DNA of 64,000 bases from Octopus sinensis. Its lineage: Eukaryota. The notes under the pieces were generated by a model that saw only the letters and a list, made by a program, of their open reading frames with translations, had not been told where the DNA came from and searched no databases. The DNA is taken from the NCBI RefSeq assembly GCF_006345805.1, contig NC_043001.1:9052001-9116000 (forward strand), in the 5' to 3' direction. Of this stretch, positions 5,364 through 63,800 are shown piece after piece (position 1 is the stretch's first letter; each line of letters begins with the position of its first letter). Made by a program: the position numbers and the translations under genes.

Positions 5364-5391
5364 CTTCTTGTCTAATATTGACATCATTTAA

Positions 5392-6153
5392 GGCAGCGAG
5401 CTGGCAGAAACGTTAGCACGCCGGGTGAAATTCTTAGCGGTATTTCGTCTGTCACTACGTTCTGAGTTCAAATTCCACCGAGGTCGACATTGCCTTTCAT
5501 CTTTTCGGAGTCGATTAAATAAGTAACAGTTACGTACTGGAGTCGATGTAATCGATTTAATTCGTTTGTCTGTCCTTGTTTGTCCCCTATATGTTTAGCC
5601 CCTTGTGGGTAGTAAAGAAATAAATATTTAGTCTGCCGCTACGTTCTGAGTTCAAATTCCACCGAGGTCGACTTTGCCTTTCATCCTTTCGGGGTCGATT
5701 AAATAAGTACCAGTTACGCACTGGAATCAATGTAATCGACTTAATCCGTTTATCTGTCCTTGTTTGTCCCCTCTATGTTTAGCCCCTTGTGGGTAGTAAA
5801 GAAATAAGTATTTAGTCTGCCGCTACGTTTTGAGTTCAAATTCAGCCGAGAGCGACTCTGCCTTTCATCTTTTCGGAATCAATTAAATAAGTACCAGTTA
5901 CGCACTGGGGTCGATATAATCGACTTAATCCGTCTGTCTGTCCTTCCTTGTCTCTTCTGTGTTTAGCCCCTTGTGGCTAGTAAAGAAACAGGTATTTAGT
6001 CTGTCTTTAAGTTCTGAGTTCAAATTCGCCGAGGTCAAATTTACCTTACATCCTTTCGAGATTGATAAATTAAGAACCAGTTGCTTACTGGGGTTGATCT
6101 AATCGACTGGTCCCCTCCCAAAAATGTCGGGTCTTCTGCCTAGAGTAGAAAAG
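5392..6153 (+). mobile_element. SINE family A tetramer (one head, four cores, three internal tail-1 modules, terminal tail-2)
   Basis: About 183-bp unit repeated; degenerate 18-bp TSD AATATTGACATCATTTAA (5374-5391) / AACATTGCTATCATTTAA (6154-6171). Confidence 0.9.
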
Positions 6154-6897
6154 AACATTGCTATCATTTAATATAACTCCATTTACCCCCTACTGTAAAT
6201 TTGTGACTCTTTTTTTTAACCTGGCAACGAGATAAAGAAAATGTATTTTCGAAGTTTCCTTGAAGAATTATGTTTGGCTGAAATTCATCGAATATTTTAA
6301 TTTTAAATGAGATATTATGATGACTTATCTGCAATCATTTCGAGTTAACTTATCAATTATGTGGAACATTAACGAATAAAGTTATAAATTGTCTAAAATG
6401 ATGATAATACAGAATGTAATTTGACAGATTGAAGGAATTTATAAATCTTCAGTAGAAATCAGTGCATATTTGATATTATTTCTGCGATAATTACTGCTAA
6501 AAAGAACCTTCCAACACGGTAGAAGATATATGGGTGTAGTCATTACGGCACCATTCATTTAGTGTCGCTCATCCGACGCCGATTTATTTGATAGACATTT
6601 TTATATGTCTCTCAATCTCTCCCTCCGCCATCTTGCACTCGGGCTCTCTCTCTCTCTCTCTCTCTCCCTCTCCCTGCCTTTCTCTCCTCGCACCTCTCTC
6701 TCACTCTCTGAGCTTTAATGGAGGAGATTAATCCTTGTACTAATTTTTAAATCTGTCTCTCTTTCTGTTGGTCCCTTTCTGTCGAATCACTAATTTACGA
6801 TGATGTAAGTAAAGCAACACCGTCTATAAAACGATGGTAGGTATACAATCGCAGACACAAATTCACATACGCACACACATATACATAGACTCATATA

Positions 6898-7406
6898 CGA
6901 GGGTGAGTCAAAAAGTAATGCCATTTTGTTTAGTACAGGTACAATTACCAACACAGGAACATGTATCATGCATCAAAATGAAGCTGGTGCTCTATGGATC
7001 ACATCCCTACTTTTCAATATAGTCACCGTTTCTCTCAATAGTAATGTTCCACCATTGAGAGCATGTATCCCTGCCCCATAAAATTCTGTTCTTTGAGCCT
7101 CTTCGCTACAGTTTTCACTTCATCCTCACTGGAATAAGGTTTGCTTCTCAAACCCTCTTTCATAGGGCCGAAGAGATGATAGTCCAGTGACGAGGAAGTG
7201 AAAACTGTAGTGAAGAATTGGCTCAAAGAACAGTCAACAGAATTTGACGGGGCAGGGATACATGATCTCATTCAAAGGTGGGACATTTGAGAAGTAGGGA
7301 TGTGATCCACAGAGGACCAGCTTCATTCTGATGTGTGATACATGTTCCTGTGCTGGTAATTATACCTGTCCTAAACAAAAGGGTATTTCGTTTTGACTGA
7401 CCCTCG
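6898..7406. mobile_element. Mariner-derived fold-back MITE
   Basis: TA on both flanks; ends CGAGGGTGAGTCAAAA / TTTTGACTGACCCTCG; long inverted arms; transposase C-terminal remnants on both strands (DYHLFGPMKEGLR..Y.SEDEVKT on minus, SDEEVKTVVKNWLKEQSTEF..GIHDLIQRW on plus). Confidence 0.9.
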
Positions 7407-7467
7407 TATACAAACACACACACACACACTTATATATATGCTCATATATGTATATATATATATATAA

Positions 7468-7538
7468 GTGGGTAGCAGAACGCTTAGGGAATCGAACTCT
7501 ACGTCTCAAATTCTAGTCGAATGCTCTGTATCACTGAA
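7468..7538 (-). mobile_element. tRNA-like SINE head (family E), inverted partner of 8542-8616
   Basis: Reverse complement matches 8547-8616; B-box-like GTTCGATTC and TCGA-CTAGAAT-T(C/T)GA anticodon-like arm. Confidence 0.55.
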
Positions 7539-7542
7539 GTGG

Positions 7543-7704
7543 GGCTTCCATATAGTTTCCGTCTACCAAATTCACTCATAAAATTTTGGTCCAGCCAAGG
7601 CTATAATAGAAGACGCTATCCTAAGCTTCCATTCAGTGGAACCGAACTCAAAACCCCCACGGTTGCTAAGCGAATCGCTTAATCACATAGCCACGCCAGC
7701 GCCT
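7543..7704 (-). mobile_element. SINE family B 5' half, degenerate
   Basis: GTTTCCGTCTACCAAATTCACTCA...CACATAGCCACGCC. Confidence 0.7.
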
Positions 7705-8065
7705 GATGTAGTGAATGAATGCAAATAAAAACATGAACAACGAGACGTCTCTATTGCAGAATTAGTAAATAGAACTCAAGGTAATTTGTGATGGCCTGCA
7801 TTGGGAAATCTTGAATAAGGTTGAAGTAGAGAATAGGAAACGCCTAACATTTTGGGAAGGTATCTATCAAAGATTCTATGATAAATGAGGTTTCCTCTTC
7901 ATCGCAACAAACCAATTTCTTCACTTTTCACGTTTTATATTATATTGACGAAGAAGCCAGGTGAGTAGTTTGTAAATATATTATTCGAATATCCTAAAGC
8001 TATTATTTAGGGTTATAAAAGACAGTACTTGTTGTCGAAAATCGCCTAACTCAGTGGCGCAGGTA

Positions 8066-8541
8066 GAGGCGCAATGGCCCAGTGGTTAGGGCAGCGGACT
8101 GGCGGTCGGAGGATCGCGGTTATTCGTCTGCCGTTACGTTCTGAGTTCAAATTCCGCCGAGGTTGACTTTGCCTTTCATCCTTTCGGAGTCGATAAATTA
8201 AGTACCAGTTACGCACTGGAGTCGATGTAATCGATTTAATCCGTTTATCTGTCCGTGTTTGTCCCCTCTGTGTTTAGCACCTTGTGGGTAGTAAAGAAAT
8301 ATATATGTAAGACGGCAAGCTGGCAGAATCGTTAGTATGCCGGGTGAAATGCTCAGCGGTATTTCGTCTGCCGCTACGTTCTGAGTTCAAATTCCGCCGA
8401 AGTCGACTTTGCTTTTCATCCTTTCGGGGTCGATAAATTAAGTGCCAGCTACGCACCGGAGTCGATATAATCGACTTAATCCGTTTGTCTGTCCTTGTTT
8501 GTCCTCTCTGTGTTTAGCCCCTTGTGGGTAGTAAAGAAATA
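8066..8541 (+). mobile_element. Chimeric SINE: family C head fused to a family A unit, followed by a full family A copy
   Basis: GAGGCGCAATGGCCCAGTGGTTAGGGCAGCGGACT..GGATCGCGGT joins TATTCGTCTGCCGTTACGTTCTGAG at about 8120; second A head at about 8310. Confidence 0.85.
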
Positions 8542-9680
8542 TAACTCAATGTTACAGAACATTCGACTAGAATTCGAGACGTAGGGTTCGATTCTCTAAG
8601 CGTCCTGCTAGACACTTTTTTCCCGTCTTCTATGAGTATTTATTCGATCTTCTTAGCTGTTTTTACAACTCTCCTCCGTTCGAGATTACTGTTATTTTCC
8701 GTAATATAATGATAGAGATTTTGAAATATTCTTTAAATATAAAATTGGTGATATTAAATCCTTTCTTTGTAATCCCAGTTAAGATGGACTGGAATGTCAG
8801 AATGAGCGACAGTAAAATTCCAAAGGTTCTCGTGTGTAGCCAGTTCCATGATAGGAGAAGCGTAAGAAGACCATGGGTCTGAAAGGCTGCGTTTTCCCGT
8901 CACGATGCCGTGATTTTATCTGCAAGATTTTATCTGCAAGATTTTATCCCGGGACCCAAATCCACAGATGAGACCCCACATGACATGTCGTTCGTTGCTA
9001 TAACAATTTCGGTTCTCCAATAGACTGACCAGTTGTTATTTAAGTATCTACCCCGAAACGATAACGAAGGTGATCTTAAACGTATTTGAACTCTGTTCGT
9101 AGATAACCGCACAAATACCATAAGACATTTCAATTCGACGCATCAGCGACTCATCCAGTTTACCAATTTGACGGGTAATTCTTATGGAGACAAAACAAAA
9201 CAAAGATTTTTCGTTTGTTTTTGAAAAAAAATCCTCTGCTCAATTATGCATTTGATAAGCGTCCGGCTCCAGCTAAACGATTGAATATCTCTCGATGCAA
9301 CGGTTACTCTCTCTCGCTGTGCTGTACGATTCCGATGGCATACAATATGTTTTGTGTTCATCTCGGATATTCCTTATCTGCTATTCCTTAAAATAGCACT
9401 ATTTTCTCGTTGATACGTTTATCTCTTCAGTTGCTAGGAACGATGAAGCATAGAAATGTTATTGCAGTATAGCATTATATGATATTGGTTATCAGAGCAG
9501 CAACGGTTTACTATGATCTGTTCGTAGGTCCACAATACGATTAATAACAGGAAACGTACCCCCACTCAATGCATAAGTACATACATACGTACACACACAC
9601 AAATATATACAAATATACATATATGTATATATATATGCAAACATACAAATTCATACATAAATACATACATATATGTGCGT

Positions 9681-11264: not shown

Positions 11265-11893
11265 TTCTTTACTATTCTAGGAAGAGTGCCCGAAATTTGA
11301 TGGTGGGCGAGTCCGTGGATTTGATCGACCCCAGTACACAACTGGTACTTAATTTATCGACCCCAAAAGAATGGAAGGCAAAGTCGACCTCAGCGGAATT
11401 TGAGATCAGAACGTAAAGACATACGAAATACCTATTTCTTTACTACCCACAAGGGGCTAAACCCAGAGAGGACAAGCAAGGACAGACAAACAGATTAAGG
11501 CGATTATATCGACCTCAGTGCGTAACTAGTACTTATTTAATCGGCCCCGAAATTATGAAAGACAAAGTCGACCTCGGCGGAATTTGAACTCAGAACGTAG
11601 TGGCTGACGAAATGCCGCTCAGCATTTCAACTGGCGTGCTAATGCCTCTGCCAGTTCGCCGCCTTTGCTTCCACCTGTATTATTTTCTAGTCTAGGCACA
11701 AGGCCCTAAATTTGAGAGGAGAGGGCCAGTCGATTAAATCGACCTCAGTACATAACTGGTTCTTAATTTATCGACTTTGAATGGATGAGAGGCAAAGTTG
11801 ACAACGGTGGAATTTGAACTCAGAAAGTAAAGACAGACGAAATACCGCTAAGTATTTCGCCCGGCGTGCTGACGCCTCTACATGCTCGCTACC
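11265..11893 (-). mobile_element. Tandem SINE family A dimer plus monomer
   Basis: Heads end at about 11663 and 11893; a shared spacer motif TT(C/T)(T/C)ACCT(A/G)TA occurs at 11254, 11669 and 11899. Confidence 0.85.
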
Positions 11894-14283: not shown

Positions 14284-14605
14284 TTATCCATCGTGAAATA
14301 CGTATGGGCATTCAGTTGTTGCATCAACTCCGTTTACTTCTTCTAATTAACATACGAGGTGGCTGAGTATCTCTAAGAAGCATGTACCTATAATGAAATA
14401 TGTAACAAGTACCAATAATATGCAAATGAACAAGATACGTACCGTTCATCTGACAACGGTTTTCCGCGCGTTTCCCACTTCCGTATTTTGATCAAAACAC
14501 TCTGGCAAACAAGACTATGGTGATGCTTGCAGCGAGGGAGATTTACTTGGCGAAGAGAGGGTGGTAGAGGTAGTAATCGGTTGACTCATTTAGTCTAGTA
14601 TACAA

Positions 14606-15000
14606 GACGGCGAGCTGGCACAAACGTTAGCACGCCGAGCGAAATGCGTATTCGTATTTCGTCTGCCGTTACGTTCTGAGTTCATATTCTGCCGAGGTCG
14701 ACTTTGCCTTGCATCCTTTCGAGGTCGATAAATTAAGTACCAATTACGCACTGGGGTCGATGTAATCGACTTAATCCCTTTGTCTGTCCTTGTTTGTCCC
14801 CTCCGTGTTTAGCCCCTTGTGGGTTGTAAAGAAATAGATATTTCGTTTGTCTTTACGTTCTGAGTTCAAATTCCGCCGAGGTCGATTTTACTTTTATCCT
14901 TTCGGGGTCGATAAATTAGTACCAGTTGCGTTCTTGGGGCCGATCTAATCGACTGGCCCCCTCCCCCAAAATTTCGGGCCTAGTGCCTTGAGTAGAAAAG
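14606..15000 (+). mobile_element. SINE family A dimer with TSD
   Basis: Head + core + tail-1 + core + tail-2; 18-bp TSD ATTTAGTCTAGTATACAA (14588-14605) / ATTTCGTCTGGTATACAA (15001-15018). Confidence 0.9.
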
Positions 15001-31090: not shown

Positions 31091-31350
31091 TGAAGGCGCG
31101 TAGCTTAGTGTTTAGCTTAATCGGCTCATGATCGTAAGGTTACGAGTTCGATACCCGGCAGAGCATTGTTTCTTTCAGCATGACACTTATTTATTTTATA
31201 TTGATTTTGTCCTTTCAGCTAGCAAAAATGAGGGACCCCTACATTCTAAAAGTGGCCAGCTTTGTCATATTCCTTGTCATGCTTTTTCTCTCTGGTTCTT
31301 CTCTTGATCACATCAACAGGAATACTGGTCGTCGTAACCGACGGAGTGCC
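31091..31350 (+). mobile_element. Degenerate SINE: family D-like head with tail C1 remnant
   Basis: GTGAAGGCGCGTAGCTTAGTG..GAGTTCGATACC; ends GTCGTCGTAACCGACGGAGTG. Confidence 0.6.
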
Positions 31351-45734: not shown

Positions 45735-45959
45735 GCCTGTGTTTCTCCTTCCACACGCACATACACACACACTCATACACACACCATGCCTTGACAACCG
45801 ATACTGGTTTGGTTGCTTCCCCGTAACTTTAGCAAAAGTGACCGATAGAATAAGTACTAGGCTTACAAAGAATAAGTCCTGGAGTCGATTCGTTCGACTA
45901 AAGGTGATACTCCACCATGGCCACAATCAAATGACTGAAACAAGTAAAAGAATAAAAGA
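45735..45959 (+). mobile_element. SINE family B 3' half
   Basis: GACCGATAGAATAAGTACTAGGCTTACAAAGAATAAGTCC...GACTGAAACAAGTAAAAG. Confidence 0.8.
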
Positions 45960-45969
45960 TTTTACAGTT

Positions 45970-46146
45970 TATATTTAAGAAATGAGGAATTATGTAGATT
46001 ATTTACATTATTTACATTTGACGGATATTTGTCCTCATCTTGTTTGCTGTTAACACAACGTTTCGGCTGATATACCCTCCAGCCTTCATCAGGTGTCTTG
46101 GGGAAATTTCGAACCTGGGTTCTCATCCCTAACGTATTTTTCGATG

Positions 46147-46189
<43 letters not shown>

Positions 46190-46273
46190 AATAACAATGG
46201 CACTCTACTTTTAATTTTGACTCTATATCTTCAGGAGGAGTTATCGCAATCCTTTTTATATTATTATTATTTT

Positions 46274-46320
<47 letters not shown>

Positions 46321-46491
46321 TTTTTCGGGTCACTGCCTGAAATCTAACTGGGAATCTTGGGCTTAGTAGCGCGCACTCTTAACCACTACACCATATGCCC
46401 GATGAAGGTTGGAGCATATATCAGCCGAAACGTTGTGTTAACAACAAACAAGATGAGGACAAATATCTGTCAAATGTAAATAATGTAAATA
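45970..46491 (-). mobile_element. tRNA-headed, hammerhead-bearing element with inverted terminal copy (copy 1)
   Basis: tRNA-like head 46328-46400, (ACT)n/(AAT)n spacer, hammerhead 46052-46097, inverted copy of the 3' end at 46399-46491. Confidence 0.85.
46052..46097 (-). ncRNA. Minimal type-I hammerhead ribozyme motif
   Basis: GACAC-CTGATGA-A-GGCTG-gagggtatat-CAGCC-GAAAC-GTT-GTGTT; 5-bp stems I and II, loopless palindromic stem III (AACGTT), GUU site. Confidence 0.75.
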
Positions 46492-47230
46492 AAAGATTTC
46501 TTGTACAATTCCCAGGTTATGCAAACCCCATCTCTACCATGCATATAAGTGAATTCATCTTGGGCAAGCAGGGACATTGTGCCTAATTATACTTTCTTAA
46601 TCTTCACTTATTCTTTGGGTTATCTATTTTGCTGCGTAAGATGGATTTTGTTGTTTATGTTGAGAGCGATTTGATCATCAACCACAACTGACTTTATACA
46701 ATCCTAACTTTTAATCATCTTCTTCTCAGATTGTGTTGCGATTCTCATATCTTTTTTCTAAACTTCTTCAGCGTTTCGACTTTTTTTTTCACGCATTGGT
46801 TCTACAAGGAAATATTTTCTTGCCACCATTTTCACATGGTGTTCTATAACTCCACTTTTGCATTAGTTTTTCTTTCTTCTCCTTTTTACCATATTCTCTT
46901 GCTTCCTTCTTCCTCCTAAGAACTGACTCTCACTTCAGTCGCTGCTACTGTTTTTTCTTGGGTTCTTTGAAGACAGCAGTCAGCTTTATTTTTTTCTTTT
47001 CATGATCTGAAGCAAAATGTATTAGGGTTATTTTGTTCTTTACCATAATTTTTTTTATGATACTGCTGTGGATATCTTCTAATAAGATTTTTGTTGATAA
47101 AAAACATTACATCCCTAATATTCGTTGAAAATATATAACTTAAAATTGATTGTTAGTGTGTAACTAGAACTTTCTAAACAGTCCTAATAATTTTTGTCTA
47201 CTTTTTCTAATTCCGCCTTGTTTTAATATA

Positions 47231-51840: not shown

Positions 51841-52008
51841 TTGACGTTTCTAATAATAATATAACATATGATGCACCCTTTGATATTTTTCAGATTTTTG
51901 TATCTTTTGTCGTAGTAGGCGTTGGGCGTTTTGCCTGCATTGTATTTTGTCATTCTAGAACCAAGTATTTATCAAGTAAAATATTATAGCAATGAAATAA
52001 TACAGTTC

Positions 52009-52328
52009 TATATTTAAGGGATGAGGAATTATGTACGTTATTTACATTTGACGGATATTTGTCCTCATCTAGTTTGGTGTTAACACAACGTTTTGGCTGA
52101 TATACCCTCCAGCCTTCATCAGGTGTCTTGGGGAAATTTCAAACCTGTGTTCTCATTCCTAAGGTATTTTTCGTTGTCGTTGTTGTTGCTATTATTATTA
52201 TTATTCAGACCTGGAATCGATCTCGAAATCTTGGTGTTAGTAGCCCGCGCTCTTAACCACTACACCATATGCCCGTGTTAACAACAAACAAGATGAGGAC
52301 AAATATCCGTCAAATGTAAATAATGTAA
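52009..52328 (-). mobile_element. tRNA-headed, hammerhead-bearing element with inverted terminal copy (copy 2)
   Basis: Colinear with 45970-46491; hammerhead 52082-52127 has GAAA mutated to AAAA; head 52209-52274; inverted copy 52275-52328. Confidence 0.85.
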
Positions 52329-53441
52329 GTAATGTTTAGAAATGACAGCTTAAATCTTGGATTCCACCTTCTTTCGTTGTAGTTGGAGAAAGACAAATTT
52401 TATTTGGATGTGTTTTGGATCTTACAACGTCTGAATGTAAGACTTTGTGAAACAACTCTGGTCAAAGAACACCTGTTCGATTGCTTCTTTGCTCTCTAGA
52501 CTATGTCCATAGGAAATATTTTTAAAAACGTCAAGCGAGTTATAAGAGAACGTCTAGGCATTCTAAATGAAATAACAGCCAAATATCGAATGTTCTTTCA
52601 TTCAACAATGAAAGAATACTTTGTTGTACTGAAGCTGAGAGACGGTACATTCTCTGCCGCGTTCTACAATGCGAATTTAGCTGTTCGGTCAATTTGGAGA
52701 TCAAGGTGTGACGGCTTAGTATCCGCGAGTCGCGTGTTCTCTTAAATAAATTATCAGATGGAGTCAGCGAGATATAATGTATGAAGGTTGAACTTTGAAT
52801 TACAAGTACAATCCAGAAAGAAATAGAAATAGACGGACAAATGAACAGTCACAGAAGAATTGATTGTAGTCTTGTACTGTTTTTAGATCTATCGACCCTG
52901 AAACCATGTAAAGAAAAGTTAGCTGTTCATACAATTTGAACTCAGAACACGGAGAGCTGGAATTTAATGCAAGCTAGGATTATCTCTCACTAACAGTTTG
53001 AAAGGAATACCTTTATACATTGATCTAAGCGAGCCCGGGGTTAAACAACGACAGCAACAACAGTGTTCGAATATAAATAAAAAATATATATATAGAATAA
53101 AGAGAATATCAAATTATTGGATGTTTCTCAAAATAATCATTTGGTTCGGCAGGCAATCGGGGATAGAAATAAATCGATCTGTAGTCTACACACATTTAGC
53201 TTCATTTCAAAGAAGATGAAGACACACGAGATAATATGAAGAGACAAAATCATAAGTGAAACGTTTCTTAGATATCATTTATCTAAACCGTGCGTAGAAA
53301 GAAGTTGATCTCGTTTATATGAAGCAATGGTTATTTCACTTACTAATTAATTATATAAAGAACATTTAGCAAATATAGATACACCTAATATTTTGTCGAT
53401 AGTTGCTGGAAGTATTAGACGCATTATAAACTTCATACATA

Positions 53442-59547: not shown

Positions 59548-60827
59548 TGGAATTTTGGGGGAATCGGCCAGTCCATTGGATCGGCCCCAGTACGCAAATG
59601 GTGCTTATTTAATCGACCCTGTAAGGATGAAAGGCAAAGTCGACCTCGGCGGAATTTGAACTGAGAACGTAACGGCAGACGAAATACCTATTTCTTTACT
59701 ACCCACAAGGGGCTAAACACAGAGAGGACAAACAAGGACAGACAAACGGGTAAGTTGATTACGTCGGTCCCAGTGCGTAACTGGTACTTATTTAATCGAC
59801 CCCGAAAGATGAAAGGCAAAGTCGACTCGGCGGAATTTGAAATGAGAACGTAACGACAGACGGAATACCTATTTCTTACTACCCACAAGGGGCTAAACAC
59901 AGAGAGGACAAACAAGGACAGACAAACGGATTAGTTGATTACGTCGGTCCCAGTGCGTAACTGGTACTTATTTAATCGACCCCGAAAGGATGAAAGGCAA
60001 AGTCGACTTCGGCGGAATTTGAAATGAGAACGTAACGACAGACGGAATACCTTTCTTTACTACCCACAAGGGGCTAAACACAGAGAGGACAAACAAGGAC
60101 AGACAAACGGATTAGTTGATTACGTCGGTCCCAGTGCGTAACTGGTACTTATTTAATCGACCCCGAAAGGATGAAAGGCAAGTCGACTTCGGCGGAATTT
60201 GAAATGAGAACGTAACGACAGACGGAATACCTATTTCTTTACTACCACAAGGGGCTAAACACAGAGAGGACAAACAAGGACAGACAAACGGATTAAGTGA
60301 TTACGTCGGTCCAGTGCGTAACTGGTACTTATTTAATCGACCCCGAAAGGATGAAAGGCAAAGTCGACTTCGGCGGAATTTGAAATGAGAACGTAACGAC
60401 AGACGGAATACCTATTTCTTTACTACCCACAAGGGGCTAAACACAGAGAGGACAAACAAGGACAGACAAACGGATAAGTTGATTACGTCGGTCCCAGTGC
60501 GTAACTGGTACTTATTTAATCGACCCCGAAAGGATGAAAGGCAAAGTCGACTTCGGCGGAATTTGAAATGAGAACGTAACGACAGACGGAATACCTATTT
60601 CTTTACTACCCACAAGGGGCTAAACACAGAGAGGACAAACAAGGACAGACAAACGGATTAAGTTGATTACGTCGGTCCCAGTGCGTAACTGGTACTTATT
60701 TAATCGACCCCGAAAGGATGAAAGGCAAAGTCGACCTCGGCGGAATTTGAGCTCAGACCGTAGCAGCAGACGAAATACCGCTAAGCATTTCGCGCGGTGT
60801 GCTAACGATTCTGTCAGCTTGCCACCT
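59548..60827 (-). repeat. SINE family A tandem array: seven cores, six near-identical 180-183 bp units
   Basis: Tail-1 motif TACTACCCACAAGGGG at about 59697, 59877, 60058, 60240, 60421 and 60604; single head at about 60780-60827. Confidence 0.92.
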
Positions 60828-63800
60828 TAAAATATTCTTTTTTATACGAGGTACAGGGCCCGAAATTTTTAGGAAGAGGGCCAGTCGATTAGATCGACCC
60901 CAGTACGCAACTGGTACTTTATTTATCGATCCCGAAACGATAAAAGGCCAAGTCGACCTCGGCGGAATTTGAACTCAAAACCTAAAGACAAACGAAATAC
61001 CACTAATCATTTAACCCAGAGTGCTAACGTTTCTTATTTCTTTACTGCTCACAAGGGGCTAAACATAGAGGGAACTAACAAGGATAGACAAAGAGATTAA
61101 GTCGATTACATTGACCCCAGTGCGTAACTGGTACTTGATTACCGACCCTAAAAGGATGAAAGTAAAAGTTGACCTCAGCGGAATTTCAACTCAGAACATA
61201 ACAGCAGACGAAATACCTATTTCTTTACTACCCACAAGGGGCTAAACACAGAGAGGGCAAACAAGGACAGACAAAAGGATTAAGTCGATTACATCGACTC
61301 CAGTGCGTCACTGGTACTTAATTTATCGAGCCCGAAAGGATGAAAGTCAAAGTCGACCTCGGCGGAATTTCAACTCAGAACGTAAAGACAGACAAAATAC
61401 CTATTTCTTTATTACCCACAAGGGGCTAAACACAGAGGCAACAAACAAGGACAGACATAGGTATTAAGTCGATTATATCGACCCCAGTTCGTAACTGGTA
61501 CTTAATTTATCGACCCCGAAAGGATGAAAGGCAAAGTCGACCTCGGCGGAATTTGAACTCACAACGTAACGCAGACGAAATACCGCTAAGCATTTCGCCC
61601 GACGTACTATCCTTTCTGCAAGTCGTCGCTTTAATAAAAGGAATTGTACGAAACTTTCGCTGTTAATATTTCCATTGAAGAGTCCAGGCTTCATGGCAAA
61701 GAATAGTGTTACTCAAGATTCTTTCATTCTCAGCTGAGTTTAAAGTTTTGTGATGACAATAAATATTAAGTAAGTGGGCGAACAGGCAGAAACGTTAGCA
61801 CGCCAAGCGAAATGCTTAATACTATTTCGTCTGTCTACGTGTTCTGAGCTCAAATTTCGCCGAGGTCGACTTTGCCTTTTATCCTCTCGTGGTCAATAAA
61901 TTAAGTACGAGTTGCGTACTGCTGTCGATCTTCTCGACTGGTTCAATCCTACAAAATTTCGGATCGTGTGACTAGAGTAGAAAAGAAAAAGATACATAAT
62001 AAGTTACCGCATTTGTCTCTGAGCCACTTAAAACAAGAAATTACGTTATAAATTATAGAATGTCTGTTTCTTTATTGCCCACAGGGGCCTAAACATAGAG
62101 GGGGGCAAAAAAGGATAGAGAAAGGGATTGAGTCGATTACATCGTAACTGGTACTTATTTAATCGAACCTGAAATGATGAAAGGTAAAGTGAACCTCGGC
62201 AGAATTTCAACTCAGGACTTAAAGACAGACGAAAAATACCTGTTTCTTTATTACCCTCAAGGAGCTAAATGCAGAAGAGACAAACAAGGACAGACAAAGG
62301 TATTAAGTCGAACACATCGACCCCAGTGCGAACCCGAAAGGATGAAAGGCAAAGTCGACCTCGGCGGAATTTGAACTCAGAACGTAACGGCAGACGAAAT
62401 ACCTATTTCTTTACTACCCCCAAGGGGCTAAACACCGAGAGGACAAGCAAGGACAGACAAACGGATTAAGTCAATTATGTTGACCTCAGTGTGTAACTGG
62501 TACTTATTTAATCAGCTCCGAAAGGATGAAAGGCAAAGTCGACCTCGGCGGAATTTGAACTCAGAACGTAACGGCAGACGAAATACGGCTACGCATTTTG
62601 CCCGGTGTGCTGACGTCTCTGCCAGCTCGCCACCTTAAAATATTCTTTTTTATACGAGGTACAGGGTCCGAAATTTTTAGGAAGAGGGCCAGTCGATTAG
62701 TCGACCCCAGTACGCAACTGGTATTTTATTAATCGATCCCGAAACGATAAAAGGCCAAGTCGACCTCGGCGGAATTTGAACTCAGAATCTAAAGACAAAC
62801 GAAATACCACTAATCATTTCACCCAGGGTGCTAACGTTTCTTATTTCTTTACTGCTCACAAGGGGCTAAACATAGAGGTAACTAACAAGGATAGACAAAG
62901 AGATTAAGTCGATTACATCGACCCCAGTGCGTAACTGGTACTTAATTACCGACCCTAAAAGGATGAAAGTAAAAGTCGACCTCAGCGGAATTTCAAATCA
63001 GAACATAACAGCAGACGAAATACTTATTTCTTTACTACCCACAAGGGGCTAAACACAGAAAGGACAAACAAGGACAGACAAACGGATTAAGTCAATTATG
63101 TCGACCCCAGTGCGTAACTGGTACTTATTTAATCGACCCCGAAAGGATGAAAGGCAAATTCGACCTCGGCGGAATTTGAACTCAGAACGTAAAGACAGAC
63201 AAAATACCGCTAAGCATTTCGCCCGGTGTGCTGAAGTTTCTGCCAGTCGTCGCTTTAATAAAAGAAATTGTACGAAACTTTCGCCGTTAATATTTCTTTT
63301 GAAGAGTCAAGGCTTCACGGCAAAGAATAGTGTTACCTAAGATCCTTTCATTCTCAGCTGAGTCTAAAGTTTTGTGATGACAATAAATATTAAGTAAGTG
63401 GGCGAACAGGCAGAAACGTTAGCACGCCAAGCGAAATGCTTAATACTATTTCGTCTGTCTACGTGTTCTGAGCTCAAATTTCGCCGAGGTCGACTTTGCC
63501 TTTTATCCTCTCGGGGTCGATAAATTAAGTACGCGTTACGTACTGTTGTCGATCTTCTCGACTGGTCCAATCCTACAAAATTTCGGATCGTGTGACTAGA
63601 GTAGAAAAGAAAAAGATACATTATAAATTACCGCATTTGTCTCTGAGCCACTTAAAACAAGAAATTACGTTATAAATTATAGAATGTCTGTTTCTTTATT
63701 GCCCACAGGGGCCTAAACATAGAGGGGGGCAAAAAAGGATAGAGAAAGGGATACAATCGATTACATCGTAACTGGTACTTATTTAATCGAACCTGAAATG

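Follow-up and report, generated by a model that had tools for sequence, protein, structure and literature searches.

An SINE-like repeat with a tRNA-like head and a hammerhead motif in Octopus sinensis is the solo pseudo-LTR of a Penelope-like element and likely carries an internal Pol III promoter

The stretch of Octopus sinensis DNA analysed here (64,000 nucleotides, called the window) contains two copies of a short repeat that combines a tRNA-like head, a microsatellite spacer, a hammerhead motif and an inverted partial copy of its own 3′ end. The question raised by this locus is whether such a unit is an independent non-autonomous element, a SINE or a retrozyme, mobilised by the machinery of a Penelope-like element (PLE), as a preliminary description had proposed, or a part of the PLE itself. 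The window unit turned out not to be a separate SINE; it is a pseudo-LTR (pLTR), in solo form, of an autonomous PLE. In the interpretation that we favour, and consider probable from sequence comparison, the tRNA-Arg(ACG)-like head of this pLTR is likely an internal Pol III promoter.

Direct reading of the window placed the parts of both copies on the minus strand, with the inverted arms on the plus strand, and confirmed the layout described earlier (minus-strand head, spacer, hammerhead, inverted arm and second copy). The features are as follows.

46488-46499, minus strand: left target-site duplication of copy 1, 12 bp, with a 5-nt overlap with the arm end
46398-46492, plus strand: inverted 5′-truncated arm of copy 1, 95 nt, ORF nucleotides about +35 to +128, a "short" 3′ end
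46329-46400, minus strand: tRNA-Arg(ACG)-like head of copy 1, identical at 47 of 71 positions to a tRNA-Arg(ACG) gene of the same genome
46393-46383, minus strand: A box of copy 1, read directly
46348-46340, minus strand: B box of copy 1, degenerate, 2 of 9 positions off
46143-46328, minus strand: (AAT/ACT)n spacer of copy 1, including the 77-nt stretch 46262-46186
45963-46126, minus strand: start of the PLE ORF in copy 1, first ~54 codons, ATG at 46126, a "long" 3′ end at about +165
46052-46097, minus strand: predicted minimal type I hammerhead of copy 1, inside the ORF start, read directly
45990-46016, minus strand: three in-frame 9-nt repeats of copy 1, Asn-Val-Asn type codons, in the zone of short 3′ ends
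45951-45962, minus strand: right target-site duplication of copy 1, 12 bp
52275-52333, plus strand: inverted arm of copy 2, 59 nt, 92% identity, a "short" 3′ end at about +131
52205-52274, minus strand: tRNA-Arg(ACG)-like head of copy 2, from sequence comparison
52267-52257, minus strand: A box of copy 2, read directly
52222-52214, minus strand: B box of copy 2, one mismatch
51996-52156, minus strand: ORF N-terminus in copy 2, interrupted by a stop at codon 6, a "long" 3′ end
52082-52127, minus strand: hammerhead of copy 2, core G12 changed to A at 52094, predicted inactive

The inverted arm of copy 1 is 94% identical to that copy's own 3′ end and is without the 5′ strand of hammerhead helix I. 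Copy 2 extends from 52333 to about 51996; its B box is indeed the better kept of the two, as had been noted, and no target duplication was found at this copy. A run of four T residues (T4) between head and tail is absent from both window copies. Within the spacer of copy 1, the 77 nt at 46186-46262 are mostly non-repetitive and had no match among the other loci compared. The window also contains a second abundant SINE-like repeat, often in partial tandem, at 5387-6027, 8308-8541, 11315-11665, 14604-14908 and 60475-63246; this repeat gives all 25 of the longest inverted pairs of the window and was unrelated to the PLE family in BLAST comparisons. A weak head match at 31093-31165 on the plus strand (nhmmer E 0.039), with box-like motifs, is probably the tRNA-like head of another SINE family.

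The 3′ part of the unit proved to be coding. Copies 1 and 2 both translate as the N-terminus of an ORF, and the TGTAAATAA repeats are in-frame Asn-Val-Asn codons of that ORF; the repeats noted earlier at the 3′ end are thus present, but this end is not a mere tail. Several head-bearing loci were found to be preceded by a shared coding sequence, and tracing that sequence revealed the PLE. The element opens with the head and (AAT)n, which lead into the ORF; some 32 nt after the ORF come a second head, a second (AAT)n and a repeat of the first 120-165 nt of the ORF, such that the pLTR consists of the tRNA-like head, (AAT)n and the first ~55 ORF codons, in a partial tandem arrangement that runs into the ORF start. 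The ORF encodes a reverse transcriptase (RT) followed by a GIY-YIG-like C-terminus, with the minimal hammerhead within its first codons. One locus (L091) has the complete succession of head, tail, ORF, head and tail, two others (L092 and L097) have tail, ORF, head and tail, and a fourth (L100) is nearly complete, all four being interrupted by stops or frameshifts. No intact ORF was found, the longest stop-free frames being 391 and 449 aa; locus L099 is open for 391 codons from the tail start. When loci were selected with a 23-mer situated after the ORF stop, all 30 ran on into the head, as did 27 of 30 loci selected by protein similarity. The expectation that an autonomous PLE of this genome would have a pLTR matching the 3′ part was therefore borne out, and the idea of an independent element with a borrowed PLE tail was not, because the whole unit is the PLE pLTR.

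The assignment of the element to the PLEs is nearly certain. A search with the RT profile PF00078 gave E 3.5e-10, above the cut-off, in one of six frames (L077), and E 1.9e-6, below the cut-off, in a second frame; 414 homologues were found at E<=1e-20. The nearest relatives are the sources of P0001-P0018, at 53-70% identity. The ORF's C-terminus is 41% identical (E 3e-33) to the PF01541-bearing part of protein P0029 and 30% identical to the Anolis protein P0085. The Pfam GIY-YIG models matched none of seven frames of the family's own C-terminus, a PDB sequence search with this C-terminus gave no match, and the second GIY-YIG motif of the family reads YKG. A GIY-YIG endonuclease in the same ORF is accordingly indicated by homology, and not by the family's own profile matches. 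In L092 and L100 most of the ORF can be aligned, at 29-38%, with the 836-aa protein P0085, which we infer to be PAc-like (Poseidon type); the element may belong to the Penelope/Poseidon clade. The tail-coded peptide is conserved in P0010. By the features tested, the element is a canonical EN+ PLE. A 333-codon T/C-rich RT frame that lies directly before a solo tail at L023:438-1436, and that looks PLE-like by eye, belongs to another retroelement family and was rejected as a partner of the tail, being an unrelated neighbour. Two loci about 1 Mb apart on C3 (L333, at 1509-1831, and L334) share the same junction, from ORF position 238 to the head start at G(-6), and represent either an internally deleted subfamily or a template-jump hotspot.

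The abundance of the family was evaluated with exact motif matches and with samples of the genome. The 23-nt head motif had 1,979 exact genome matches and the 61-nt hammerhead motif 382, compared to 0 for each reversed control, whereas an ORF-end motif had 748 matches and the pLTR-ORF junction 67. A family copy was present in 4 of 60 evenly spaced 10-kb stretches (600 kb) of the microsatellite-rich 2.72-Gb genome, and none of these four had the ORF body; this corresponds to about 18,000 insertions genome-wide, with a Poisson range of roughly 5,000-46,000. The copies diverge from the commonest base by about 7-8%.

The head was compared with tRNA genes of the same genome under 10 type labels, a subset of isotypes, and the best match was to tRNA-Arg(ACG), with identity at 50 of 71 positions, in keeping with the tRNA derivation proposed earlier. 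An Arg(TCT) gene that was at one stage the top match came from a first sample of 30 tRNA loci without Arg(ACG) and has been superseded. The A and B boxes are retained in the heads, which also contain a two-codon upstream ORF. ARAGORN made no tRNA call, and so found no cloverleaf, in the 30 loci with the best heads; folding of the head yielded structures other than a cloverleaf, and the folding z-scores of head and hammerhead were not significant. Neither head nor hammerhead was recognised by Rfam (gathering and E-value modes) or ARAGORN. The head looks lineage-specific because in 22 related PLE families the region behind the ORF yielded no module of A and B boxes in a motif test that detects 11 of 30 decayed copies of the present family. 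The tRNA-Arg(ACG) genes themselves include a tandem array with a period of about 206 bp at C2:3121912-3157893 of the host genome (L353-L380), which supplies more than 90 of the first 100 listed tRNA-Arg(ACG) matches.

The hammerhead was identified by direct reading, because its core motif and helices fit the published features of minimal hammerheads. According to PMC4209133, the minimal PLE hammerhead has a helix I of 5 bp and a G10.1-C11.1 pair, with an extra base before G10.1 and a palindromic sequence at 15.2-16.2. The hammerhead of copy 1 has a 5-bp helix I, an extra A before G10.1, a helix II of 5-6 bp and a palindromic ACGU in place of helix III; its core is intact, and cleavage is predicted between 46057 and 46056. 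The earlier assignment to the PLE type agrees with these features. In copy 2 the core is broken by the loss of G12. In a set of 149 copies that was not selected on the hammerhead, the core was intact in 84 but no better conserved than the flanking columns, as expected for dead copies. The hammerhead of the Anolis element PAc is reported to overlap the ORF start, to be assisted by the protein and to be dispensable for insertion in vitro (PMC11167929).

The geometry of the insertions was quantified in sets that include the two window copies (116 3′ ends, 65 two-armed insertions and 87 units scored for 5′ ends). The 3′ ends are bimodal: 65 of the 116 lie at ORF +110 to +139, 45 at +157 to +173 and two between. 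Among the 65 two-armed (head-to-head) insertions, 57 combine a short with a long 3′ end (p 1.5e-10). A target duplication of at least 8 nt is present in 37 of the 65, compared to 1.6% of shuffled pairs; 28 of these 37 duplications measure 11-13 bp. Both arm length and breakpoint position vary freely from insertion to insertion, and the ends differ from each other, with an inverted 5′-truncated copy and a tail at one end only, as in canonical PLEs. An inverted truncated copy at the 5′ side of PLEs has been described by Craig et al. 2021 (PMC8557442), as has a 30-40-bp tail at one end only, and the PAc protein has been found to bind the initial 172 nt of its ORF, with priming from two internal sites and extension of both strands (PMC11167929). 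By analogy, the bimodal ends and the duplications of the octopus family fit the two-site priming of PAc and the one-sided PLE tail. These results support two points of the preliminary description, namely that the inversion is made at each insertion with variable breakpoints and that PLE machinery is responsible (given also the RT and GIY-YIG-like ORF). The arms of one insertion differ by 8.6%, compared to 9.1% for unrelated arms, and this near equality counts against claiming that both arms originate from one RNA; arm pairs share minor variants at 0.53%, compared to 0.27% by chance (0 of 500 shuffles), the differences being mostly later mutation.

Three other classes were rejected. The 3′ part is the N-terminus of the PLE ORF and not a LINE 3′ UTR, which excludes a LINE-tail origin, and the variable arms are not the fixed-length terminal inverted repeats of a MITE or other TIR DNA transposon. 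The suggested retrozyme was likewise discarded, the mapped loci being single or head-to-head with no tandem hammerhead arrays, although occasional direct pairs exist (L221 and L224).

The 5′ ends were evaluated in 87 tail-selected units, from which two duplicates (L179 and L225) and one mis-oriented locus (L207) had been removed, with positions counted from the tRNA-equivalent +1. It was found that 32 units end in the tail or spacer, 19 in the head, 30 at -10 to +4 and six upstream. Of the 36 units that reach the head start, 30 (83%) therefore stop there, whereas inside the head the rate is about 8% per 15 nt. Where copies continue past the head, their ends are scattered from -51 to beyond -1,500. 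The main cluster is at -6, with a secondary cluster at +1/+2, the position that corresponds to the mature tRNA. When 30 loci were chosen by the head start, six continued into the ORF end. In junctions without a fold-back, the first base is often precisely G(-6), which precedes the A box by 13 nt; clean examples are L180, L333 and L349. A SINE usually starts 12-14 nt before its A box. A selected set of 159 exact matches had a non-T base before G(-6), and the first 30 of these comprised 2 on the ORF side, 5 fold-backs and 23 others (about 8 ambiguous because of microhomology). The head is the starting point of ORF-bearing copies as well (L340, L350/L091, L098 and L336), and one tandem read-through (L331) was seen among 30 junction loci. 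An imperfect hairpin or inverted repeat at -16 to +10, of about -8 to -9 kcal/mol, is the strongest local fold at the head start, and a fold-back at this palindrome is the commonest junction.

Because a T4 run terminates Pol III transcription, such runs were counted along the ORF. No T4 run is common to the 16 ORF copies, which have 15 runs in 32,162 nt with at most three copies sharing a place, and the 2,384 column-commonest ORF positions contain 0 T4 runs compared to 6 C4 runs. The density in the 16 copies is 0.47 per kb, compared to 3.4 per kb (76 runs in 22,395 nt) in 23 other TE frames of the same genome, these being the 22 Pfam-labelled TE frames among 71 scanned, plus L023. In 24 composition-matched PLE relatives, from 80 metagenome loci collapsed to 32 families, the value was 2.4 per kb (73 runs in 30,962 nt). 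Two of the 12 long PLE ORFs among the relatives (5 of 32 in all) likewise lack T4, and the probability of its absence by chance is about 0.04-0.46 per copy by dinucleotide shuffling and 0.2-0.8 per fragment by codon resampling. The missing shared T4 is thus modest evidence, compatible with Pol III transcription over the ORF. Three of the related metagenome PLE ORF stretches, L413, L428 and L449, of 1.6-1.7 kb, have no sense-strand T4, and no module of A and B boxes was found in them.

RNA data were available from a related organism as three raw RNA-seq runs and one contig set. The family is present, with 6,388-9,258 reads per run, the strands are near 50:50 and no start site is visible. Read depth at the head exceeds that at the ORF end about 2.6-fold, the same as the ratio of motif counts in the genome (1,979/748) and what passive read-through would produce. 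The PLE protein may come from Pol II read-through.

We consider a Pol III start at the head likely, given the boxes and the position of the 5′ ends, and propose the following mechanism. Transcription would begin at G(-6), which lies 13 nt upstream of the A box, and the PLE protein would bind and prime reverse transcription within the first ~165 nt of the ORF, as in Anolis Poseidon. Priming at the front copy of the ORF-start stretch would give head, spacer and tail only, which is a SINE-like solo, as would a short RNA from a solo copy primed at the same place, and priming at the rear copy would give ORF-bearing copies. Each end of a staggered cut of ~12 bp would be extended from a different one of the two priming sites, and head-to-head joining of the resulting cDNAs would produce the inverted arm. 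The head itself would have been captured once, by such an insertion just behind the ORF stop codon, and the imperfect inverted repeat at -16 to +10 may be the scar of this capture. A SINE-like family of its own is possible for this PLE because the priming site is at the front of the element's own RNA. A further proposal, which we make tentatively and with some doubt, is that the full 2.7-kb coding RNA is made by Pol III, in which case the front priming site would make the element a LINE and a SINE in one, with no separate parasite.

The solos might instead be ordinary 5′-truncated PLE copies, with the head a passenger in the 3′ UTR, transcription by Pol II read-through or from a Pol II promoter, and the pile-up of 5′ ends caused by the hairpin through stalling, fold-back and joining of two cDNAs at -16 to +10. 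The hairpin could itself concentrate junctions, as the strongest local structure and the site of the commonest junction; the RNA-seq resembles read-through, and the characterised pLTR promoters described in PMC8557442 overlap a 5′-UTR intron and so are of the Pol II type. However, ends produced by stalling should lie at +10, the hairpin's 3′ foot, and not at -6 to +2. Furthermore, the fold-backs copy the head perfectly, without the ORF-side bulge, and therefore the cDNA had ended at -6/-7. Many clean G(-6) junctions have no fold-back at all, and -6 is where a SINE would usually start. We therefore regard this explanation as unlikely.

A true independent SINE, in which solos are transcribed by Pol III from their own loci, form their own lineage and parasitise the PLE, would account for the excess of solos over ORF-bearing copies in the motif counts given above (head start, ORF end and junction), and each solo does have promoter boxes and both priming sites, with no T4 from head to tail in the window copies. 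However, the commonest base was identical at 80 of 80 columns between 30 solo and 60 ORF-linked heads, admittedly a small sample, and no diagnostic substitution splits the two groups. The head is also an integral part of the autonomous PLE, and no alternative shared tail, as expected of a donor SINE with the same head, was found behind seven tail-less or short-tailed heads. An independent SINE is thus very improbable. Processing of a longer Pol II transcript by an RNase P-like cut at the tRNA-like fold would explain the second cluster of 5′ ends at +1/+2, but it is the least credible of these explanations, as the head has no cloverleaf (ARAGORN 0 of 30, other structures on folding) and the main cluster is at -6.

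The solo pLTR of the octopus PLE can be compared to several known systems. Its closest counterpart is PAc (Poseidon, Anolis carolinensis; Frangieh et al. 2024, PMC11167929), which is described as having a single ORF with RT and a GIY-YIG domain at the C-terminus, a pLTR that runs into the ORF start, a hammerhead that overlaps the first codons, and two internal priming sites that define an optional tail of 30-40 nt. Unlike in PAc, a tRNA-derived head that includes A and B boxes forms the start of the octopus pLTR and is followed by a microsatellite, and solo pLTRs with a fixed 5′ end dominate the family.

The TRIMp3 elements (Cassandra, Helenus and Ajax; Kojima 2024, PMC10886601) have a Pol III promoter derived from a small RNA inside the terminal repeat, for which an origin by insertion of a SINE-like piece into the repeat has been proposed. 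They are non-autonomous LTR elements, and that paper argues on grounds of processivity that their autonomous partners need Pol II, whereas the octopus head is in the repeat of a protein-coding element. If the tentative Pol III reading of the whole coding RNA is true, the octopus PLE would be a coding retroelement run by Pol III, contrary to this argument. An autonomous retroelement with a tRNA-like piece has a precedent in the LINE RTE-1_DAn, in which a tRNA-like sequence was noted (PMC5786205).

The SINE-like repeats Sm-alpha and Sj-alpha of Schistosoma combine a Pol III promoter-like sequence with a hammerhead; they are described as tandem repeats released by ribozyme cleavage, and the account in PMC6765202 appears to name no autonomous partner. 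In contrast, the octopus copies belong to an identified PLE and occur dispersed or head to head. Animal non-LTR retrozymes (PMC7761336; Li et al. 2026, bioRxiv 10.64898/2026.07.22.740005) consist of hammerhead repeats that do not code for protein and are related to the pLTRs of PLEs. They form head-to-tail arrays with circular RNAs; in the main text of Li et al. 2026 the terms "tRNA", "promoter" and "polymerase III" are absent.

The solo units, of ~280-440 bp, resemble tRNA-derived SINEs in having a tRNA-like head with A and B boxes, and are within the SINEBase criterion of less than 700 bp, non-coding, with a tRNA-derived head. SINEs depend on LINEs by definition (PMC3531059), and the solos have neither a LINE partner nor a lineage of their own distinct from that of the partner, although they work like a SINE. 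This PLE illustrates how a SINE-like family can come directly from PLEs rather than LINEs, with the autonomous partner identified, and roughly 5,000-46,000 insertions would be mis-annotated as tRNA SINEs or MITEs. The occurrence of one short and one long end in 57 of 65 insertions, together with the 11-13-bp duplications, also provides a clean genomic test of two-ended, two-site PLE priming, for which one in-vitro system has so far been the only basis.

Searches of the openly accessible literature turned up no PLE with a tRNA-derived pLTR; Repbase, Dfam, subscription papers and bioRxiv supplements may contain the family. Ohshima and Okada reportedly described three octopus retroposons in 1994 as tRNA-derived SINEs, and the solo unit may already be described as a SINE among these. 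Lastly, a copy of the PLE endonuclease region is present at C5:9023562-9024026, about 28 kb before the start of the window, and an exon encoding a C2H2 zinc-finger array (L193:2-889) is located about 250 bp from a two-armed insertion.
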